From positions 26,380 through 90,379 of the forward strand of contig JANPFP010000066.1 of NCBI GenBank assembly GCA_031423495.1: a DNA stretch of 64,000 nucleotides, given 5' to 3'. The notes beneath the pieces were generated by a model, which saw only the letters and a program-made list of their open reading frames with translations, was not told the DNA's origin and did no database searches. Numbering within the stretch: the stretch's first letter is position 1; every line of letters begins with the position of its first letter. The translations under genes were made by a program, and so were the position numbers. Source of the DNA: Acidobacteriota bacterium (GTDB lineage: Bacteria > Acidobacteriota > Blastocatellia > RBC074). Below, piece by piece: positions 3,001 to 53,238 of this stretch.

Positions 3001-6000
3001 ACGTGAAGCTCTGGGTCGCGGGGCAGTTGTTCGCGTCTACGACTCTGACCACAAACGTAGCGTTCGCCGTCGAAGTCGGAACGCCGCTGATGACGCCTGA
3101 AGCGTTGAGCGACAAGCCCGTGGGCAGCGCGCCAGAGGCGAGGCTCCAAGCGACGAGTCCGGTAGCTCCTGTGACTGTGAGTTGTTGGTTATAAGCCGCG
3201 CCGACTTGCGGAATCGGCAAGGTGGTTTGATTGACGAGCAACACGTTGCACGCAGGCGTGAGCGTGAAGGGGAGCGTCGCGGAGCATCCGTTCGCATCAA
3301 CTATGCGGACGGTGAACGTGCGCGAAGTTGTGTTGAGCGGTGTGCCGCTGATGAGACCCGCCGCTGAGAGCGACAAGCCCGCTGACAATTGGCTCGGCGC
3401 TACCAGACTCCACGTCACTGCGCCGGTCGCATTGCTGACCGTGAGCTGTTGGTTATAAGCCGTACCGACTTGCGCGTTCGTCAAAGTCGCAGGGCTGATC
3501 GCCAAATTGGTGTTGCAGAGCGGTGTGATGGTGAAATCGCGCGTACCCATACAGCCGTTCGCGTCGGTCACTTTGATCGTGAATGCAGCCGCCGTCGTGC
3601 TGGTCGGCGTACCTGAAACCAAGCCTGCTGCCGTGAGCGTCAAGCCCGCCGGTAACGTGCCAGTCGAGACGCTGTATGTCACTGCGCCGTTGTTGCCGCT
3701 GACCGTGAGTTGTTGCGAATAGCTTGTACCGACTTGCGCGTTGGGCAAGCTGGCTGGCCCCACCGTCAACGTATTGCAACCCGGCATCAGCGAATATTCG
3801 CGCGTCGCCATGCATCCGTTGGCGTCGGTGACTTTCACCGTGAAGCTGGCAGTCGCAGCCGCTGTCGGTCTGCCACTCAGCACGCCCGTCGAGGCGTTGA
3901 GCGACATACCCATCGGCAATGCGCCGGAAGCAATCATCCACACCAGCGGATTCGTCGCGCCGCCCGTGACCGTAATCGTCTGGTTGTAATCAACCCCGAT
4001 TTGCGCGCTCGGCAAGCTCGTCGGACTCAACGTCAACGTCGCGCAACCCGGCGTGATGGTGTATTCGAGCGTCGCCATACACCCGTTGGCGTCGGTCGCT
4101 TTGACCGTGAAGGTGAACGCCGTCGTCGGCAACGTGCCACTCAGCAAGCCGGTGCTTGAGAGCGTCAGGCTGCTGGGTAAAGGATTATTGGGCGGCGTCG
4201 TAACAACGCTCCAGACAACGTTTCCAGTTGCGTTGGTGGTGCTGAGTTGTTGCGAATAAGCCGCGCCAATGGTGCCGCTCGGCAGAACGAGCGGATTGAT
4301 CGTGATGGTTTGGCAAACAATGGTGACGGTGAATTCGCGCGTCGCCGTGCAACCGTTCGCGTCAGTCGCGCGAATGGTGAACGCGGGATTCGTCAATGAC
4401 GTAGGCGTTCCGCCAATCACGCCACCCCCTGCACTGTTAGACAGCGTTAAGCCAGCGGGTAATGAACCCGCTGAGACCGCGAACGAATACGGCGCAACGC
4501 CGCCTGTCGCTGAAAGCGTTTGCGAATAGGCCGCGCCAATCGTGCCGTTGGGCAAGGTTGCTGGATTCACTGTGATGGTCGGGCAAACCGGCGTCACGGT
4601 GTATTGGCGTTCGCCAAAACATCCGTTCGGTCCGGTCGCGCGAATCGTGAAGGTTGCGCTTGTGAAACTCGTCGGTGTGCCGCTCACCGCGCCCGTCGTC
4701 GGATTGAGTGAGATGCCCACCGGCAAGTTACCGGCTGACACGCTCCACGACACGGTACCGGTCAAGCCCGATTGCGTGAGCGTCGTTGAATAAGCCGTGC
4801 CTACGGTCATCGCGGGCGTCGTCGGGAAGGTCGCAGGCGAGATCGTTATGGTGTTGCATACGACGTTGAGCGTCAGCGTCACCGAGCCGGTGCATCCGTT
4901 CGCGTCGGTCACGCGGAAGGTGAGCGCGGGCGAACCCGGAGCCGTCGGCGTACCGCTCAACAGTCCAGCATTTGGGCCGCTGGTCACAAAGGTCATGCCG
5001 TTCGGCAACGTGCCGTTCGTCAAAGCCCACGTGAGTGTGCCGTTCGCGCCTGTCGCACTGAGTTGCTGTGAATAAGCCGAACCAACCGTCGCTTGCGGCA
5101 ATGAGGCAGGCGTCACGGTGATGGTTGGGCAAGTCGCCACGACCGTGAAGCTGCGCGTGCCTTTGCATCCGCCAGCATTGGTCGCATCGGTGGCTTCGAT
5201 GGTGAAGTTATAAGTGCCTGCCGTCGTCGGCGTACCGCTGATGACTGCGCCAGTTAATGATAAGCCGGTGGGCAACGCGCCTGTGCCGATGACCGCGAAT
5301 GTATACGTCCCGCTGCCGCCCGTCGCGGTGATGGTTTGGTTATACGCCGTGCCGACGGTCGCAGCGGGCAACGTCGCCGGATTCACCGTGATGGTCGGGC
5401 AGCCGACTGAAATCGAAAGCGCAATCGAACCCTGACAGCCGTTGCCGTCGGTCACGTTGATCGTGAAATTAAAGTTGCCGTTCGTCGTCGGCGTACCGCT
5501 CAAGAGTCCGCCAGTCGTCAGCGTCAAGCCACCGGGCAAGGCTCCGGCTGAGACCATCCACGCGAGTGGATTAACGCCGCCCGTTGCGGTGAGTTGTTGC
5601 GAATAGTTCGCGCCAATCGTACCGGCAGGCAGGCTGGTTTGCACTACGACCAGCGTGTTGCATACGACGTTGAGCGAGAGTGTCACCGAAGCCATACAGC
5701 CCAGCGAATCAGTTGCCGTGAAAACGAGATTGCTCGAAGCCAACGCCGTCGGCGTGCCGCTCAACAGACCCGCGTTCGTGAACGTCATGCCGTTCGGCAA
5801 TGTGCCGTTCGCCAGCGCCCACGTCACTGCGCCGGTTGCGCCTGTGACCGAGAGCGGTTGGTTATAAAGCGCGCCTAACACTGCGTCAGGCAGCGTGGTC
5901 GGCGTGATCGTCAGCACTCCGCAAGTGCGTACGGTGAAGCTGCGGCTGCCTGTGCAACCTGCTGCATCGGTCGCCATGATGGTGAACGTGGTGTTGCTTG

Positions 6001-24920: not shown

Positions 24921-24950
24921 ACTATTTCTCGTTTGGGTATCAACTGCCGT

Positions 24951-25051
24951 GTCAGTAGCCCGCGCGTAAGCAAGGGCTGCCTTCAAAATGTGTGCCTTGC
25001 AGCAACGGGCGCAAACTAGAGGCAGCCCTTGCTTACGCGCGGGCTACTGAC
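24951..25051. promoter_or_regulatory. Perfect 31-bp inverted repeat (gtcagtagcccgcgcgtaagcaagggctgcc / ggcagcccttgcttacgcgcgggctactgac) with a 39-nt spacer, lying between the DUF1549/1553 gene and the DUF1501 gene.
   Basis: Read directly from the sequence: stems at 24951–24981 and 25021–25051. Confidence 0.6.
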
Positions 25052-25061
25052 ACGCGGCCAA

Positions 25062-28758: not shown

Positions 28759-28763
28759 TGAAA

Positions 28764-28880
28764 TCAAAAGGCAAAAGGCAAAAGGCAAAAGGCAAAAGTG
28801 AAGAACCGCACGCAAGGTAAAAATAAAAGAGAGCAAGTGCCGCCCTTTTGATTTTTGCCTTTTGCCTTTTGCCTTTTGAT
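28764..28880. repeat. Inverted pair of heptamer arrays (AAAAGGC)x4–5 and (GCCTTTT)x4 flanking a 46-nt core; copy 1 of a dispersed element
   Basis: Read directly from the sequence: 28764–28798 atcaaaaggcaaaaggcaaaaggcaaaaggcaaaag and 28845–28880 cttttgatttttgccttttgccttttgccttttgat. It lies between the glcE-like stop and the glcF start. Confidence 0.8.
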
Positions 28881-28905
28881 TTTTTCCATCGTCAAGAGTG
28901 AGAGC

Positions 28906-34205: not shown

Positions 34206-34231
34206 TGTTGACGTTCTCCTCGGTGATAAAA

Positions 34232-34368
34232 AAGGTACAGCAACCTTTCCAGGTTGCTGAGGGCTTGTGCAAAAAAACACACTGAGAGAATGGTAAGGCG
34301 TGTGTATGTCCCGCTTGGTTTAGTAGACGCGACACCAATCCGCAGCAACCTGGAAAGGTTGCTGTACC
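34232..34368. terminator. Two copies of an identical 9-bp-stem hairpin (cagcaacc-tttcc-aggttgctg) in inverted orientation, lying between the PSCyt gene stop and the DUF1080 start
   Basis: Read directly from the sequence: 34236–34262 and 34341–34366. Confidence 0.4.
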
Positions 34369-34370
34369 GT

Positions 34371-37300
34371 TCACTTCGTGATCGTTTCGTCCAAATTCAA
34401 TAACACATTGGCGACCATCGTCCACGCCGCGAGTTCGGGCGAAGGCACCGATGATGAGGAAGCCTGTTTGACCACTTTAAGGGCTTCGTCAGCGTGCAAC
34501 TTGAAGTAAGCGAGTTGCTGCTGATAAAGCGCGGTGAGCCGTTCGAGTTCGGCTTTGTGCGGAGCGCGCGCTACGCACAGGCGCGTGCCGTAAGCCAAAT
34601 GCGACGATGCATCTGCACCTTCTTTCATCATTCGGCCAGCTAAGGCACGCGCGGCCTCAAACATTGCTTCGTCGTTTAACAGGTTCAGCGCCTGCAACGG
34701 CGTATTCGTTCGCGTACGCCGCACGACGCACGACTCGCGGCTGATGCCGTCGAAATTCAACATCATCGGATAAGGCGACGAGCGGCGCAGGAACGTATAC
34801 AAACTGCGGCGATAGCGGTCTGCGCCTTTGGCGTTCATCCATTTTTCGCTGCTGTAAGGCGCTTTCCAGATGCCTTCGGGTTGCAACGGCATGACCGACG
34901 GGCCGCCGACTTTTTGCGTCAACAAGCCGCTGATGGCGAATACAGTATCGCGCAACATTTCGGCTTCAAGCCTGAAACGCGGGCCGCGCGCGAGCAAGCG
35001 GTTGTAAGGGTCTTTCTCTTGCAAGGCGGGTGAACTAGCCGCCGCTTGCCGATAAGCCGATGAAGTCACGAGCGTACGAATGAGCTTTTTCATGCTCCAA
35101 TTCATGCCGCCTTGGTTAGCGGGTTTGCTGAACTCTACGGCGAGCCAGTCGAGCAATTCGGGGTGCGAAGGCGTGGCGGATTGCAGGCCGAAATCTTCTG
35201 ACGTCTCGACGATGCCGCGTCCGAAAAGCTGTTCCCAAAAACGATTGACTGCGACGCGCCCGACCAACGGATTGTCTGAACTGACCAGCCATTGCGCGAG
35301 TCCCAGGCGATTGGCGGGCGCGCTCTCAGGCAGCGCGTGCAACACGGCGGGCGTAGCCGCAAATACCTTTTCGCCTTTGCTCATGAAGTTGCCGCGTTCG
35401 CGCAAAAACGTGGCGGGGCGTTCAGCGGATTTCACTTCCTGCATCACCAGCGCCGACGTGATGCGCAAGGCTTTGAGTTCGTCGCGCAGCTTTTCTAACT
35501 GGTCGCGCGTCGCTTTGAACTCAGGCACGAGCGAACGATAACGATCGGCCAAATCCTGCTGTTGTTTGGCCGTACGCGCGGTTACCGCTTGGGCGAGAAC
35601 CGCTTGTTGCCGCGCTGAAATGTTCACGATCTCAAACGGCGTCTTGCTGTTCGTCACCGACAATCTGAAGCGTCCCATCGTTTGGCAAAGCGCGCCGCCT
35701 TGATGCCGCAACGTGATTTTTAATTGCGTACCGGTGGCCGCGCCAAAAGGCAAAGCGGTAGTGAATACGGCTTGGCGTGCTAGCCGTTGAGCTACATCAC
35801 CATTTGGGTCGTTGGTCGCATTGATCGCCCAACCCGCCGGACGATCAGCCACGCGCGTGTCGGTCTTGTCGGCAAAAATTTCGCGCGGTTCGGGTTTGTA
35901 AGCCGAATCATTCACGCGCAGATCTTTCAGCTTGATAGCTTGGCCTTTGCCGTTAAGCGGTACGGTTTCGACCGCGAAACCCGTCAGCAAAAAATTGCCA
36001 TAAGGGTCACGTCCCGGCCCGCCTTGCGGCAAGCTGGCGTCGGGCAACACTTCAAGCCGCAACGCAGTGATATTCGCCAGTTTGGTTTGCGCCGTGATGG
36101 TGAAAATTTCGCTCTCGCTTTGCGTGCCTGACACCAGCAACGAATGATCGCTTTGGGCGTTGAGTTGCGCGCCGCTGGCAGCTTCGGCCTTGAGCGGTTT
36201 GAGCGTCGTCCAGCTTTGCGGAGCATTCAGCAAAGCCTTTTCCCAAGCGGCTTGCGCGGCTTGGCGTTCAGGCGCATCGGCTTTGAGTTCGGCTTCGAGC
36301 TTTTTGATTTCGGCGTTCAGGCGTTGGCGTTGCGCGGCCTGTTCGGGCGAAGGCAAATCAAGCGCAGGCTCTTTCACAAAGCGCGTGAATTCCTCTTTCG
36401 TCACGCTCTGATAAGCGATTTCGTACTCGCTGTTTTCAAAAAACGCCAACAGCTTGTAATAGTCTTTTTGCGTGAACGGGTCGTATTTGTGGTTGTGGCA
36501 TTGCGCGCAACCGACGGTGGAACCCAGCCAGACCGTGCTGGTCGTATTCACGCGATCAACCAGTGTTTCCCAACGCGCTTCGTGCGGATCAACGCCACCT
36601 TCCTGATTAATCATTGTGTTGCGATGAAAGCCCGTCGCAATGCGCTGTTCTTCCGTAGCGTTCGGCAGCATGTCTCCCGCGATTTGTTCGATGGTGAATT
36701 GATCGAAAGGCTTGTCGGCGTTGAGTGCATTGATGACCCAGTCGCGGTACTTCCACATCACGCGCAGGTTGTCTTTTTCGTAACCGTTCGAATCGGCATA
36801 GCGCGCCAAATCCAACCACGGACGCGCCCAGCGTTCGCCATAAGCAGGCGACGCGAGCAGCTTGTCCACCACCTTTTCATAAGCGTTGGCTGAAGTGTCG
36901 GCGATGAATGCGTCTAGGTCTTGCGGCGAAGGCGGCAGGCCGATCACGTCGAGATATACGCGCCGCAACAAGACGGCTTTGTCCGCTTCAGGCGAAGGCC
37001 GCAATCCTTCTTTTTCGAGGCGCGCGAGAATGAAACTGTCTACGGCGTTGCGCACCCAGGCTTGGTTTTTGACGGTCGGCAAAGCGACTTGGCGCGGCTT
37101 CACATACGACCAATGTTTCGGCGTGTCGGATTTGAGATTTGAGATTGCGTCATCGGGCCAACTCGCGCCTTCATCAATCCAGCGAGCGATGAGGGCGATT
37201 TGTTCAGGCTTGAGCGCGCTGGCTTTGAGCGGCATTTGCACTTCGCCGCCTTCGCCTTTGAGGCGCGCCATCAAACGCGAAGCCTTGCTGTCACCAGCGA

Positions 37301-43133: not shown

Positions 43134-43136
43134 GAG

Positions 43137-43206
43137 CATGTAGTCCCGCCTTCAGGCGGAATGTCTTGAGTGAGCGAGACATTCCGCCTGACGGCGGGAC
43201 TACATG
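43137..43206. terminator. 29-nt imperfect inverted repeat (one mismatch) with nested palindromes, immediately after the stop at 43133; probable terminator or attenuator
   Basis: catgtagtcccgccttcaggcggaatgtc ... gacattccgcctgacggcgggactacatg. Confidence 0.45.
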
Positions 43207-44373
43207 CCTCAAACATCCCCCATGCCATACAAAATCCTTGTCGTAGATGACGAACCCGACCTTGAAATCCTCATCACCCAACGCTTCCGCAAACGCATTC
43301 GCGCCGAGGAACTCACCTTTCTTTTTGCCAGCCATGGCGAAGAGGCGCTGGTCAAATTACAAGCCGACAACCTCGTAGACGTCGTGCTCACCGACATCAA
43401 TATGCCTGTGATGGATGGCCTGACGCTGCTGTCCCGTTTGCGTGAAGCGCATCCGCTGCTGCGTTCCGTGATTGTCTCGGCGTATGGCGATATGCCGAAC
43501 ATTCGCACGGCGCTCAATCGTGGCGCGTTCGATTTCATCACCAAGCCAATTGATTTTCAGGATTTAGAAATCACGCTTGACCGCGCCATCAGCGACGCCG
43601 TCGAGCGCAAACAGGCGGCGCAGGATCGTGACCGCTTGCTGGCCTTGAGCCGCGAACTCGAACTGGCGCGCAACATTCAATCCGCGCTCGTTCCGCATAC
43701 CTTCCCGCAACACGAAAGCCTGTCGGTCTATGGCTCGATGATTCCGGCGGCGGAAGTCGGCGGCGATCTGTTTGATTGTTTCATGCTTGATGACCAGCGG
43801 CTGGCCTTCACCATCGGCGATGTGTCCGGCAAAGGCATCGCGGCGGCACTGTTTATGGCCGTCAGCCGCACGGTGTTGCGCGTAGCCGCCAGCAAAGGCT
43901 TGTCGCCGCAAGCCTGTCTGCTGGAAGCGCACCAGTTTCTGTATGGCGAGCGCCGCGCTACGTCCCACTTCGTCACCTGTTTTTACGGCATTCTCGATCT
44001 GGCGACCGGGCAATTGGAATACAGCCGCGCCGGACACAATCCGCCGTATCTGGTGCGCGGCGATGCGGTGCAAACGCTGGATGCGGCGAGCGGGTTGCCG
44101 CTGGGCATGATCAGGCGCGTGAACTACGACACGGCAACGGTGCAGCTTGCTCCCGGAGACACGCTGCTGCTGTTCACCGACGGCATCACCGAAGCGATGA
44201 ATCCGCGACAAGAGGAATATGGCGAAGAGCGGCTGGTGCAATTGCTCGGCGAGCGATCGTCGGCGCTGGCTGTGGAGGAGTTAGTTCGGTTGGTGACACA
44301 AGAGGCGATTGCGTTCGCCGAGGGCGCACCAGCTTCGGATGATATGACGGTTTTAGGCGTGCGGTATGTTTAG
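43204..44373 (+). CDS. Response regulator (REC) fused to a PP2C/SpoIIE-type serine phosphatase
   Basis: YKILVVDDEPD...VVLTDINMPVMDGL (REC) and GDVSGKGIAAALFMAVSRTVLR (SpoIIE/PP2C). An alternative start at 43222 (MPYKIL) would avoid the hairpin. Confidence 0.85.
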   Translation: MPQTSPMPYKILVVDDEPDLEILITQRFRKRIRAEELTFLFASHGEEALVKLQADNLVDVVLTDINMPVMDGLTLLSRLREAHPLLRSVIVSAYGDMPNIRTALNRGAFDFITKPIDFQDLEITLDRAISDAVERKQAAQDRDRLLALSRELELARNIQSALVPHTFPQHESLSVYGSMIPAAEVGGDLFDCFMLDDQRLAFTIGDVSGKGIAAALFMAVSRTVLRVAASKGLSPQACLLEAHQFLYGERRATSHFVTCFYGILDLATGQLEYSRAGHNPPYLVRGDAVQTLDAASGLPLGMIRRVNYDTATVQLAPGDTLLLFTDGITEAMNPRQEEYGEERLVQLLGERSSALAVEELVRLVTQEAIAFAEGAPASDDMTVLGVRYV

Positions 44374-44377
44374 TTAT

Positions 44378-44529
44378 GGAGTGCTGCGGCTCGACGCAGC
44401 TTTTCGTTCGCCGCGATTCGACTCAGGTTACCCCAAGCGGTCAAATGCGAACGCAACGCTGCGGCGATATTAAGGGTTACCCCAAGCGGTCAATTGCGAA
44501 CGAAAAGCTGCGTCGAGCCGCAGCACTCC
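44378..44529. promoter_or_regulatory. Structured intergenic element: a perfect 34-bp inverted repeat enclosing two 27-nt direct repeats (gttaccccaagcggtcaa[a/t]tgcgaacg)
   Basis: Read directly from the sequence: stems 44378–44411 and 44496–44529; DRs at 44427–44453 and 44476–44502. Confidence 0.6.
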
Positions 44530-44551
44530 ATGTCGCACTGAAAGGGCTGAA

Positions 44552-47500
44552 ATGAAGAAAAATCAAAAGGCAAAAGGCAAAAGGCAAAAGGCAAAAGTGG
44601 AATGCGGAAGCAGAGCTTTTTCTGTATTTCCGAAATCAAGTTCCGAACTTTTTCCTTTTGTGTCTGGCTTTCTGAACTTTTGCCTTTTGCCTTTTGCCTT
44701 TTGCCTTTTGATTTTTCTGCTGCTTGCCTTTCCGGCGTTCAGCCAGGAGCCCGCGCTAAAGGCCGAAATCGGCATGCCCTTGCTGCGCAATTACACGTCG
44801 AAGGAATACGGAGCCTCCGCCCAGAACTGGAGCATTCTGCAGGATCGTCGTGGCGTGCTCTACGTCGGCAACCTCGGAGCTGCCGTGCTGGAATACGACG
44901 GCGTTACCTGGCGCAAGATCAGCATCCCCGGCGCAGGTCGTTCCCTCGCCCTGGACGCTGCGGGAAAGATTTGGGTGGGTTCTCAGGCGGACTTCGGTTT
45001 CCTGGAACCCGACGCCAACGGCACGCTGCAATACGTCTCGCTGGTTGAGAAGATTCCGCCGGAGCACCGCAGCTTCAACGATGTCTGGCGGGTGCTGTCC
45101 ACTCCACAGGGAACCTTCTTTCAATCCTACGCGCGCCTCTTCCGCTGGGATGGCCAGCGGGTGCAGGTCTGGGCCACGAAGACGCGCTTTGAAGCGCTCT
45201 CGGAAGTGCGTGGTCGCATCTATACCTCGCAGATCGGCATCGGTTTGCAGGAAATTGTGGGCGATGAATTACGCAACCTGCCCGGTGGCGTGGCCTGGAA
45301 AGATTCCATCAAGCTCATTCTGCATCCGTATGACGAACAGCGCATCCTGGTCTCTGCCCAGCGGGAAACGCTAACACTTTACGATGGTGAGCAGGTGACC
45401 CTGTTTCCGACTCAGGCGGACGATCATCTCAGGAAAAGCGAACTCTACACGTCCACGCCGCTCCCCGATGGCGGCTTCTGCCTCAACACTCAGGCTGGTG
45501 GCGCGGTGATCATTGAGCGCGATGGTCGGCTGCGCCGCATTCTGGACAAGGATTCCGGGCTGCAAACTCAGAAGGTCAATGCGGCTTTTACTGATCGCGA
45601 GGGTGCCTTATGGCTGGCGCTTGGCTCCGGCATCTCCCGCGTGGACATCAACTCCCCGATTGCTCTCTTTTCCCGCCAAAGCGGTTTCGATGTCATGCGC
45701 CACGGCGGCTCGCTCTACGTTACGTCTTTACACACGGGCGTTGCGCTCTACCGCCTGGAGCCGAATCGAACCACTGGCCTGGCCGCCTTGCAACCGATCC
45801 CTTCTCGTGCTGTTCAGGCTTATCGCCTGCTATCCTTCCTTGATCCCGCTGGCAAAGCGCCGCCCCAGTTGCTCGCCGCCGCCTTTTATTATGGTGTCAT
45901 GAAAATCGAGGGCGATGTAATTTCCCCGACCCTGCCACGCGAGCAAGGGCTGGTAGAGTGGGGGGACACGCTGCTGCAATCCCGGCAATTTCCTAACCGC
46001 GTGTTTGCGGGGTACTCGGGTAGCCTGTCTTCCATCCGCTGGGAAAACGGTCAATGGATTAATGAGGGCCGCATTCCCACCAACAGCGTTGTGAGGTCAT
46101 TGGCTGAAGAGGGCGATGGCACGCTTTGGGCTGGTACCAGCACGGGCGGCGTGCTGCGCGTGGTCGTCCCCGCCACCGGGATGCGTGATGCGAAAGTGGA
46201 ACGCTTCACTGAAAAAGACGGGCTGGGGAAACGCGTGCATGAGGTGCTCCACGCAGACGGCCAACTTTTCGTTATTCCGTCCCCGACGAAGAACATCCTG
46301 CGCTGGGATGGAGCGGCTCGTCGTTTTATCCCTGACAACCGCTTCCTGCTTCCGCTGCCAGACCCCGAGGCGGGGGCTAGATTGCAGTTACTCCCAAACG
46401 GCGACATCTGGTCCAGAACTTCAACACTCAACGATCAACGGCAGGGCATCTTTCGCCGCCAGGCTGATGGAACCTATCAACTCGACGAAGCGCCTTTCCG
46501 CGGCTTGTCCCGGTTCGGGGTTCGCAACGTCCTGTCTGAGTCGGACGGCAGCCTCTGGATTGCCGGTGATGACGGCCTCGTCCGCTTTGACCAGCGGATG
46601 AAACCCACCGCCGCGCCGCCTTTCTCCGCGTTGGTGCGCCGCGTCAGCGCAGGGGCGGACGCCATCGTCTTCGGTGGAGCAACACTCGCCGCTCCGCTGC
46701 GTCTGCCCTTCGCCCGCAACTCGCTGCACTTTGAATTCGCCGCGCCGAGTTACGGCGACGAAGCGGGAACCGCATATCAATACCGCCTGGAAGGAGCCGA
46801 CAAAGACTGGTCGGGCTGGGGCAGGCAAACCGAAGCCAACTACAACAACCTCGGCCCCGGCGCGTACCGGATGCGCGTCCAGGCGCGCACCAGTGATGGT
46901 CGCCTCAGCGAAGAAGGAGCCTTCAGCTTCACGATCCTGCCGCCGTGGTATCGCACGTGGTGGGCTTATGGTTTTTATGCGCTGCTGCTGGCGGCGTTGA
47001 TTTATGCGGCTGCGCGCCTGTTGCGGCGACGTGTCGAGGCGCGCGAACAAGCGAAAGCCGCGCAACGCGAAGCGGAGTTGCGCGCGGAAACTGCTCTGCG
47101 CGAAGCCGAGTTGCGCGCCGATGCCGCCGCCGCGCAGGCGAAATCGCTGCAAGCCGAAAACGAGGCTTATCAACGCCTCAAAGCGACGCAGGAACAATTG
47201 CTGGTGCAGGAAAAACTGGCTTCGCTCGGAGCCTTGACCGCAGGCATCGCGCACGAGATCAAGAATCCGCTGAACTTCGTCAACAACTTCGCCGACCTGT
47301 CGGTAGAACTGATGGACGAATTGCGCGAAGACATCGAAAAGAACAAGGCCGCGATTCCTGCGAAGGATTACGAGAACATCGAAGCCTTGCTCGACGACCT
47401 GACCGGCAACGCCAAAAAGATCAACGAACACGGCAAACGCGCCGACGGCATCGTGCGCAGCATGCTGCTGCATTCGCGCGGGCAAGCGGGCGAACGCCAA

Positions 47501-48001
47501 CCGACCGACATCAACGCGATGCTGGACGAATATGTGAACCTGACGTATCACGGCATGCGCGCGCAGGATTCATCCTTCAACGTCACCATCGAACGCGCGC
47601 TGGCAAGCGATGCCGGAATGGTCGAGGCGATTCCGCAAGACCTGAGCCGCGTGTTTTTGAATTTGCTGAACAACGCCTGTTACGCGGTGAACGACAAGGC
47701 GAAAAAGAACGGCGCAGGCTTTGTACCGAAGCTGCGCGTGAGTTCGGTGAACCTGGGCGATGCTGTCGAGATTCGCATCCGTGACAATGGCATGGGCATT
47801 CCGCCGGAAGTGCGCGACAAAATCTTCAATCCGTTTTTCACGACGAAACCTACGGGGCAGGGAACGGGCTTGGGTCTTTCGATCAGTCACGACATCGTCG
47901 TGCAGCAACACCACGGACAACTGGAAGTGGAAACCGAACCGGGCGAATACACGGAATTCATCGTGCGTTTGCCGCGCAGCAGTGGATTACGGCTGCGATG
48001 A
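44552..48001 (+). CDS. Sensor histidine kinase with periplasmic beta-propeller repeats and a Y_Y_Y domain, TM segment, coiled coil, HisKA and HATPase domains
   Basis: [42 protein letters not shown] (Y_Y_Y), [18 protein letters not shown] (H-box), [13 protein letters not shown] (G2 box). The true start is uncertain because the 5' end runs through the heptamer element; the second arm encodes a signal-peptide-like [23 protein letters not shown]. Confidence 0.85.
44564..44713. repeat. Copy 2 of the inverted (AAAAGGC)n / (GCCTTTT)n heptamer-array element, at the 5' end of the histidine kinase gene
   Basis: 44564–44597 caaaaggcaaaaggcaaaaggcaaaaggcaaaag; 44677–44713 cttttgccttttgccttttgccttttgccttttgatttttc. 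Confidence 0.8.
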
Positions 48002-48056: not shown

Positions 48057-48190
48057 AACGGTAGCGCAATCTGCCGAAATTGCGTGGCGTGATGACCTAC
48101 GACATTGATTGCGCCCATAACCCCACGGCTTCGGTAAGTGAAGCTGCGCAATCTCGGCAGATTGCGCTACCGTTGTATTCTTTTTTAATG
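48057..48190. terminator. 29-nt inverted repeat (2 mismatches) with a 57-nt loop, followed by a T-run (tattcttttttt); likely a terminator or small inserted element downstream of the histidine kinase
   Basis: aaacggtagcgcaatctgccgaaattgcg ... cgcaatctcggcagattgcgctaccgttg. Confidence 0.4.
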
Positions 48191-52535: not shown

Positions 52536-52616
52536 CAAGATAAGGTGGAGCGCAACAGCTTCGGGATAGTCGAGATAGACGAAGCCTTCAGTCACCACGG
52601 CGTTTTATAGACATCA

Positions 52617-52846
52617 AGAAAATGATTTTCCAAAAAAGCCCCAACGGGGCGATGGTAAAACAGCCCGGGGTGAAGCCCTGGGATAAAGTACGCGCGACAA
52701 ACAAGCCCTGAAAGGGCGTGATAGTTGCGCGATTATTTCGCCCTTTCAGGGCTTGCCGAAAATCCCCGTTTCGTTCCCAGGGCTTCACCCTGGGCTTTAA
52801 TACAGTCGCCCCGTTGGGGCTTTCTGCGGAGGATCATTTTCTTGAA
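52617..52846. repeat. ~230-nt imperfect palindrome (two ~110-nt arms, each containing three short hairpins) between the 129-aa gene stop and the PHP gene; MITE-like or structured-RNA candidate
   Basis: Arm 1, 52618–52727 (…aaagccccaacggggcga…cccggggtgaagccctggg…caagccctgaaagggcg), is reverse-complementary to arm 2, 52739–52846. Confidence 0.7.
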
Positions 52847-52848
52847 AG

Positions 52849-53238
52849 CTATAGCTCCTCAAACGCTTCGCCATATTGGTTCAGGGTACGCTCGACCGCT
52901 GATTTTATCGCGGGCGACGGCGACGGCAGGACTTCAACCCGCAGCGCGCCGTGTTTGGCATAAATCGTCAACAACGAACCGGACGCAAAGCCCGCCGCCG
53001 CCGCCAAGTCTGACGGCATCTCAAGAAACCAGCCCGGCTCGCGTTGCCGCGCTTCTTCAGTTTGCACTGCCAGATTCATCAACGCGGTAATTTTGCCGGG
53101 GCGCGCAAACAACGTAACCAGCGAACCGGCAGGCACGCCAAACAGGTCTTCGGCAATTTCTTTGGGCATCGCCGCAATCCAGGCTTGATCTATGCGCTGC
53201 GGCGTTTCAGTCAGCGTTAAAGCGGTTGATAAACTCAT
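52849..53238 (-). CDS. Hypothetical protein with two tandem AbrB/MazE-like (swapped-hairpin) segments
   Basis: Internal duplication: MPKEIAEDLFGVPAGSLVTLFARPGKITALMNL / MPSDLAAAAGFASGSLLTIYAKHGALRVEVL. Confidence 0.4.
   Translation of the reverse strand: MSLSTALTLTETPQRIDQAWIAAMPKEIAEDLFGVPAGSLVTLFARPGKITALMNLAVQTEEARQREPGWFLEMPSDLAAAAGFASGSLLTIYAKHGALRVEVLPSPSPAIKSAVERTLNQYGEAFEEL

Follow-up and report, generated by a model that had tools for sequence, protein, structure and literature searches.

A dispersed inverted-repeat element, probably a REP doublet, inserted between a response-regulator gene and a histidine kinase gene in an acidobacterium

In a 64,000-nt stretch of an Acidobacteriota genome (contig JANPFP010000066.1; hereafter the window), a gene for a response regulator with a PP2C/SpoIIE phosphatase domain (RsbU-like; RR-PP2C) is followed on the same strand by a sensor histidine kinase gene, and the gap between them is taken up almost entirely by a 156-nt element built around a perfect inverted repeat (Table 1). 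The initial annotation had placed the element between genes of these two kinds, and the Pfam domains bear this out. The RR-PP2C protein has acidobacterial homologs of up to 92% identity, annotated as SpoIIE or RsbU; a look-up of the exact protein gave no record. Between the TAG stop codon of the RR-PP2C gene (44371-44373) and the element lie 2 nt, and between the element and the kinase ATG (44552) lie 20 nt, which hold a Shine-Dalgarno-like AAAGGG (44541-44546). No promoter-like site was found in the element, and a search of Rfam 15 over 44376-44531 gave no match at E ≤ 1; neighbouring hairpins returned sub-threshold matches to generic miRNA precursors only. An ORF of 59 aa runs across the element (44376-44555) and is without a Pfam match. 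We reject it as a small protein gene: a stop closes it in the closest ortholog of the locus (L004), and its ATG is missing in most copies of the family described below.

Table 1. Positions of the element, its component parts, the flanking genes and further inverted repeats in the window.
Feature	Position	Strand	Sequence, basis or remark
RR-PP2C gene, response regulator + PP2C/SpoIIE phosphatase domain (RsbU-like)	43204..44373	+	Pfam
Left arm, REP-like unit, head outward	44376..44411	+	ATGGAGTGCTGCGGCTCGACGCAGCTTTTCGTTCGC; family profile 47.4 bits
Left-arm mini-hairpin, GCTGCG gctcga CGCAGC then TTTT, intrinsic-terminator-like	44383..44404	+	terminator scan
Variable spacer, 84 nt, about twice the canonical ~39-41 nt	44412..44495	.	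family table
Direct-repeat copy 1	44426..44467	+	42 nt, 90% identity to copy 2
Direct-repeat copy 2, into right arm	44475..44516	+	49-nt spacing to copy 1
Right arm, REP-like unit on the opposite strand	44496..44531	-	family profile 46.6 bits
Right-arm terminator-like mini-hairpin	44524-44507	-	terminator scan
Leftover of ancestral 20-nt RR-HK operon spacer	44532..44551	+	homologous to the whole intergenic spacer of L045
Reg_prop/Y_Y_Y/HisKA/HATPase_c sensor histidine kinase gene	44552..48001	+	Pfam
AAAAGGC-heptad palindrome, 43-bp perfect arms, unrelated to the element	44556..44718	.	in frame, 5' end of kinase ORF
Near-perfect inverted doublet with GTAG	24948-25054		CAGTAGCCCGCGCG
Near-perfect inverted doublet with GTAG	43136-43207		CATGTAGTCCCGCCttcaGGCGG
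Near-perfect inverted doublet with GTAG	48057-48174		CGGTAGCGCAATctgccgaaATTGCG
Long imperfect palindrome, 39-nt arms, 87%	34231-34371		
Long imperfect palindrome, 49-nt arms, 88%	52606-52853		nested in a larger 44-nt inverted repeat; internal 27-nt palindrome

The two arms are 36 nt long and 100% complementary. The initial annotation had described a perfect stem of 34 bp enclosing two 27-nt direct repeats, and both features proved to be longer than reported. Its 34-mer matches the window twice, once in each arm, where none is expected (100 shuffles). The direct repeats extend over 42 nt, and the second copy does enter the right arm, as had been claimed. Within the first copy, the 3' half (44447-44467) repeats the inner right arm in degenerate, shortened form and has 86% complementarity to the left arm across 21 nt; the simplest description of the direct repeats would be an internal tandem duplication of 49 bp. 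The predicted RNA fold of the region is far more stable than that of shuffled sequence (−97.9 vs −54.8 ± 3.8 kcal/mol, z = −11.35).

Each arm is also a small hairpin in its own right, with a predicted folding energy of −15.6 kcal/mol. Its single strand (TGGAGTGCTGCGGCTCGACGCAGCTTTT) contains a GGAGT foot, the stem and the loop GCTCGA, and in both arms the terminator scan picked out the GC-rich stem-loop and U-run of a putative intrinsic terminator, each on its own strand and with a T-run of only 4 nt. Across 34 distinct arms of the family the 6-bp helix is 98.5% paired. Four cells are doubly compensated, two in L036_R and one each in L029_L and L019_R, while each partner arm keeps the consensus; these changes thus preserve the mini-hairpin and break the pairing of arm to arm. 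The covariation score was reached by none of 500 shuffles, and we take it as supportive evidence for the arm hairpin, not proof, given that it comes from four cells only and from a biased sample in which most arms were retrieved by an exact 22-mer covering the hairpin. The 6-nt loop and the unpaired GGAGT foot are conserved as strongly as the stem, which suggests sequence-specific recognition by a protein and not merely the structural role of a generic terminator.

The arms are not confined to this locus. An exact scan of a metagenome collection with an arm 22-mer (GCTGCGGCTCGACGCAGCTTTT) found 27 metagenomic loci in ~16 assemblies, many of them at contig ends, and the outer flanks of the family copies fall into 32 distinct clusters, equivalent to about two dozen genomic sites. 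Several of these contigs come from common samples; in the window itself, a profile search with the arm model found a single copy of the family. The family unit is 28-34 nt long (consensus TnTGGAGTGCTGCGGCTCGACGCAGCTTTT, often followed by CGTTCG), and conservation ends abruptly outside TGGAG (boundary TnTGGAG). Most members are paired: we tabulated 19 doublets, mostly inverted pairs of 97-112 nt (canonically ~110 nt) with spacers of ~38-47 nt and diverse sequence, and the family also includes singletons and doublets with a diverged partner. One 2.5-kb contig (L028) carries two copies, and the spacer of the window copy locally resembles an L028 spacer (GGGTTACCCCTGGCTGTTCGG). At least 12 of 29 copies lie no more than 30 nt from the 3' end of a gene, a proximity that is the reported pattern for REPs (PMC3733652).

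Target-site duplications were absent both at the flanks of 12 complete doublets and in the comparison of an empty with a filled site (L045 vs the window, see below). The 1-3 bases outside TGGAG tend instead to be complementary between the two ends, and the variable base just outside TGGAG is, by eye, equal in both arms in 9 of 12 doublets, which speaks for the doublet as the unit. In the contigs of the Ga018789x series (L015/L026, L031, L038), the arms are prolonged outward by a common sequence (TTCTGTAAATATTTCGGGGCTGCAATG) in differing contexts, and this suggests a longer subfamily or a composite repeat. Viral contigs contained no family copy. A scan of the GTDB representative genomes with a spacer 19-mer (GGTTACCCCAAGCGGTCAA) gave three single matches, with similarity limited to 19-21 nt, that is, chance level. 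A literature search for the arm sequence found no paper, and the family appears to be undescribed in the searchable literature.

Orthologous RR-HK junctions in relatives show what the site looks like with the element, without it and with other insertions. In L004-L007 (92%), identical arms stand at the same position 2 nt past the stop, and the element has the same total length (156-157 nt). Between the window and L004, the arms are identical over their outer 33-34 nt and the upstream 300 nt are 84% identical, whereas the two spacers are no more similar than shuffled sequences (score 17 vs 18.9 ± 6.7); the arms would therefore seem to be maintained independently of the locus. The position, arms and unusual length that the two copies have in common (156-157 vs ~110 nt), together with their unrelated spacers, could result from replacement in situ, through recombination of the homologous arms with those of other members of the family. 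Alternatively, the unrelated spacers could stem from two independent insertions at one preferred site. An inverton (invertible promoter) can be rejected, since the spacers are not reverse complements of each other (reverse-complement score 29 vs 18.9 ± 6.7, maximum 48) and no promoter-like site is present.

L045 (85%) is an empty site. Here only 20 nt lie between the stop and the kinase ATG (TAG, GTTTTCCGAAAGGGTAAAGA, ATG), including the kinase Shine-Dalgarno sequence, and they are homologous to the 20-nt stretch downstream of the element in the window (GTCGCACTGAAAGGGCTGAA, then ATG). The ancestral state was thus a tight RR-HK operon, and the element is, as read from this comparison, an insertion between the RR-PP2C stop codon and the ribosome-binding site of the kinase. 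The element is likewise absent from L046/L047 (74%), in which the annotated genes overlap.

Elsewhere the junction holds different insertions. In L008/L009/L043 it contains a 147-aa IS200-type Y1 transposase (L009 6464-6907) amid CCACTAGC hairpin repeats, and in L011/L012/L044 a 304-aa IS200-type Y1 protein (L011 11752-12666; L044 6926-7840) whose gene is preceded by tandem GATACCACCGCC...GGTGGAGG hairpins. In L041 a GTAG-tagged hairpin is followed by a 246-aa RAYT-like ORF (5206-5946) with HVH and YVLNNP motifs, which scores 69 bits against REP_Tyr_transpos, below the cut-off of 80. The L040 and L042 contigs break within a GTGTCAGTAGCCCG repeat, a 14-mer that also opens the arms of the palindrome at 24948 in the window. 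Judging from these contigs, a variety of hairpin repeats and Y1 genes have repeatedly invaded the junction, and the presence of three Y1 genes at one junction may mean that it is a hot spot of insertion or that these genomes are very rich in repeats. We rejected a link between these Y1 genes and the family studied here: the repeats around them are different ones, and in the DNA available no family copy had a Y1 gene nearby. Around the IS200-like gene of L009 (6140-7600), about three copies of a ~200-nt composite repeat were seen. The limits of each are formed by CCACTAGCT..AGCTAGTGG hairpins and short tandem arrays, whose units measure 21-24 nt and have a GGCAATTGATG core, or its complement, in common.

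Taken together, we consider it likely that the element is one copy of a dispersed, non-autonomous family of palindromic repeats of the REP-doublet kind (REPIN/BIME-like), probably mobilised by an HUH-Y1 transposase. Of the three functions originally offered (a protein-binding operator, a cis-regulatory RNA controlling the kinase, a small mobile element), it is the last that survives, now narrowed to a REP-doublet family. The doublet consists of two units in opposite orientation, heads outward, with a spacer between them that is free to vary. The window copy reaches 156 nt through an internal duplication of 49 bp, which took in some of the spacer, the inner portion of the right arm and 7 nt of junction, and it landed in the ancestral 20-nt operon spacer between the RR-PP2C stop and the kinase ribosome-binding site. 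The element had been called far more elaborate than a simple terminator; this is true of its form, and the sources of that form are two inverted terminator-like REP units and the 49-bp duplication.

Mobilisation would most likely depend on an HUH-Y1 transposase (RAYT/TIRYT-type) acting on the single-stranded hairpin, which would explain both the missing target-site duplications and the conservation of the mini-hairpin with its loop. The transposase is one that we infer, because no arm-flanked Y1/RAYT gene was found: neither tblastn with three Y1 proteins as queries nor a scan for the HUH...Y motif detected a Y1 gene in the window or in the short stretches of DNA available around the family copies. 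The Y1 genes of the relatives, lying at the same junction with hairpin repeats of their own, and the GTAG doublets of the window provide a Y1 context that we count in favour of a REP doublet. The individual traits of REPs are matched in part. The unit is a short stem-loop within the usual 20-40 nt (a 6-bp GC stem and a 6-nt loop in 28-34 nt of sequence) and was inserted without a target-site duplication, and it lacks the 5' GT[AG]G foot. Its anatomy matches a REP doublet, but with its GGAGT foot and no arm-flanked Y1 gene found, the element is not a proven REPIN.

The main rival to the REP doublet is a classical MITE, a deletion derivative of an IS with a DDE transposase, in which the 28-36-bp arms would be the terminal inverted repeats of the parent IS and the transposase would act in trans. 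Long terminal inverted repeats with TG...CA termini, small size (~110 nt) and dispersal are all as expected of a MITE. Yet a DDE-type MITE combines terminal inverted repeats with a target-site duplication of fixed length, and the family has the former only, no duplication being seen in any complete copy or in the empty/filled comparison. The arms are, moreover, themselves hairpins with compensatory changes within the arm, which DDE terminal repeats do not need; like REP families, the family includes lone arms and diverged heterodimers; and among the 27 metagenomic loci, in a search that was not exhaustive, no two arms stood at an IS-sized interval. We therefore disfavour this reading and regard it as improbable. 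Copies scattered at many loci together with target-site duplications had been named as what would reduce the element to a plain MITE. The scattered copies exist (27 metagenomic loci), the duplications do not, and on that combination a REP doublet fits better.

It is also conceivable, though distinctly improbable as a complete account, that the family is a portable bidirectional terminator or RNA-stability module maintained by the host, selected at the 3' ends of genes and spread or homogenised by recombination with no dedicated transposase of its own. Each arm is terminator-like on its own strand, copies cluster 0-30 nt from stop codons between tandem or convergent genes, and the arms stay identical while the spacers turn over. 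On the other hand, a T-run of 4 nt is short, the conservation of loop and foot at the level of the stem goes beyond what termination asks for, and the clean presence or absence of the element at a 20-nt operon spacer needs an insertion mechanism. The two explanations are not exclusive, as REPs have such secondary roles (PMC6006769).

We give very little credence to the idea that the element is a locus-specific cis-regulator of the RR-HK pair, either as an operator or as an RNA or attenuator in which the left arm pairs with the first or the second repeat. Its appeal lies in the position of the element, exactly between two functionally linked genes, and in the capacity of the left arm to pair with either the degenerate inner copy or the perfect right arm, which formally allows alternative structures. 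Against it stand the recurrence of the arms at some two dozen unrelated loci, the absence of the element from the L045 and L046 junctions, wholly different insertions in other relatives, and the lack of conservation both of the spacer with its internal duplication (in L004) and of the 59-aa ORF, as well as the lack of an Rfam match and of a promoter-like site. Given the dispersed family and the state of the junction in relatives, a dedicated regulator of the two-component pair is excluded for practical purposes. CRISPR was rejected, since the repeats are inverted and not direct, and so was an integron attC site, the ends being TGGAG...CTCCA without RYYYAAC/GTTRRRY core sites and the setting a conserved RR-HK operon with no cassette array.

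An extension of the REP-doublet reading, which we put forward as speculative and on balance unlikely, is that the arms represent a REPIN-like system without GTAG, so far unrecognised, in uncultured Acidobacteria, with units that also serve as intrinsic terminators, that the junction is a true landing pad for at least five unrelated hairpin-repeat or Y1 elements, and that the spacer swap was a replacement in situ, by gene conversion or by re-insertion into a resident copy. To our knowledge, replacement of the spacer in situ between identical arms has not been described for REPINs.

Any local action of the element is probably a side effect of its insertion and not a designed switch. With its GC hairpin and the UUUU after it, the first arm may act as a weak intrinsic terminator that ends a fraction of transcripts before the second arm. 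RNA that reads through would form a perfect 36-bp duplex between the cistrons, which could stop 3'-5' exonucleases or serve as a substrate for RNase III. The net expectation would be expression of the kinase that is lowered, or uncoupled from that of the regulator, as a by-product of insertion. In E. coli, REPs within ~15 nt of a stop codon reportedly lower translation of the upstream gene, and with a gap of 2 nt between stop and element that effect would apply here. A summary of how REPs bear on mRNA stability, termination and translation is available (PMC6006769).

The element shares the window with at least six further long intergenic inverted repeats, and neither these nor the AAAAGGC palindrome that follows it within the kinase gene (44556-44718) had been mentioned in the initial annotation. 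The left arm of this palindrome encodes a Lys-rich stretch (15 residues) and the right arm a hydrophobic stretch of Leu, Phe, Pro and Ala (22 residues), and together the two peptides would resemble a signal anchor. L045 (~1537-1700) has the same in-frame AAAAGGC insertion with a different loop; L004 and L009 lack it, and their kinases have an ordinary signal peptide at the start. The window contains one more copy at 28761-28884, beside the likely ATG of a minus-strand gene and seemingly intergenic. A likeness to the Rickettsia palindromic elements and to intragenic REPs (PMC3733652) holds for the AAAAGGC palindrome, in frame and translated as it is, and not for the extragenic element. Since GTAG beside a small palindrome is the hallmark of canonical REPs, the doublets at 24948, 43136 and 48057 look like canonical GTAG-type REP doublets as far as their motifs go. 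The one at 43136 fills the entire gap from the stop of a PSD1-domain gene to the start codon of the RR gene, and the family of the one at 24948 recurs at L004 15141-15209 and L042 3956-3980, with a related repeat at the broken ends of L040 and L042. For the long imperfect palindromes at 34231 and 52606, the fetched loci contained no copies. At 2-21244 the minus strand carries one open reading frame that is longer than 7,081 codons and is cut off by the start of the window. The G+C content of this region is 0.61-0.62 as against ~0.55 elsewhere, and the product is presumably a giant surface or repeat protein.

For bacterial-repeat specialists the finding is, taken by itself, routine: an ordinary insertion of a mobile repeat and not a dedicated regulatory switch. 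It does keep such a hairpin from being read as a riboswitch-like or operator-like element that controls a two-component system, and it adds a seemingly undescribed REP-doublet family in a phylum for which repeats are poorly charted. Studied in complete genomes, the family would allow one to ask whether a Y1 transposase can recognise a foot that is not GTAG. With its natural filled, empty and alternatively filled alleles, the RR-HK junction lends itself to studying the effects of insertion on operon expression.

Among known systems, the Correia elements of Neisseria and the ERIC/IRU sequences of Enterobacteria are small palindromic intergenic repeats of ~100-150 nt that are co-transcribed with adjacent genes and can form RNase III-sensitive hairpins or terminators. 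The element resembles them as a small, intergenic and palindromic repeat. Correia elements differ from it in their TA duplication and IHF site, whereas here no target-site duplication was seen and each arm is a hairpin. Closer in phylogeny are repeats linked to Y1 proteins in Acidobacteria and Planctomycetes, among them Koribacter versatilis and Solibacter usitatus, which belong to the phylum studied here: the TIRtrons with their TIRYTs, which are Y1-linked non-GTAG repeats of a sort prominent in Acidobacteria (PMC3733652), and the atypical hairpins of the 'class 3' Y1 HuH proteins, present in ~600 copies in Solibacter usitatus (PMC6006769). Like our family, these are non-GTAG inverted repeats or atypical hairpins that are dispersed and often dimeric. 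Compared by their published motifs, they differ from it in that both the GGGGWSAS of some TIRs and the CnGA foot of class 3 are absent from the arm consensus. From the RAYT-mobilised REPINs and BIMEs of Pseudomonas fluorescens SBW25 and E. coli (PMC3337134, PMC3733652) the family differs in a foot of GGAGT in nearly all arms as against GT[AG]G, in a unit with a T-run and the look of an intrinsic terminator, and in copies near which, in the flanking DNA available, no RAYT was found, unlike the RAYT genes of those systems, which are flanked by their own units. The likeness lies in the following: in both, two inverted palindromic units enclose a less conserved spacer and form a long hairpin, the copies are dispersed, extragenic, near the 3' ends of genes and without target-site duplications, singletons and heterodimers occur beside homodimers, and several families share one genome.
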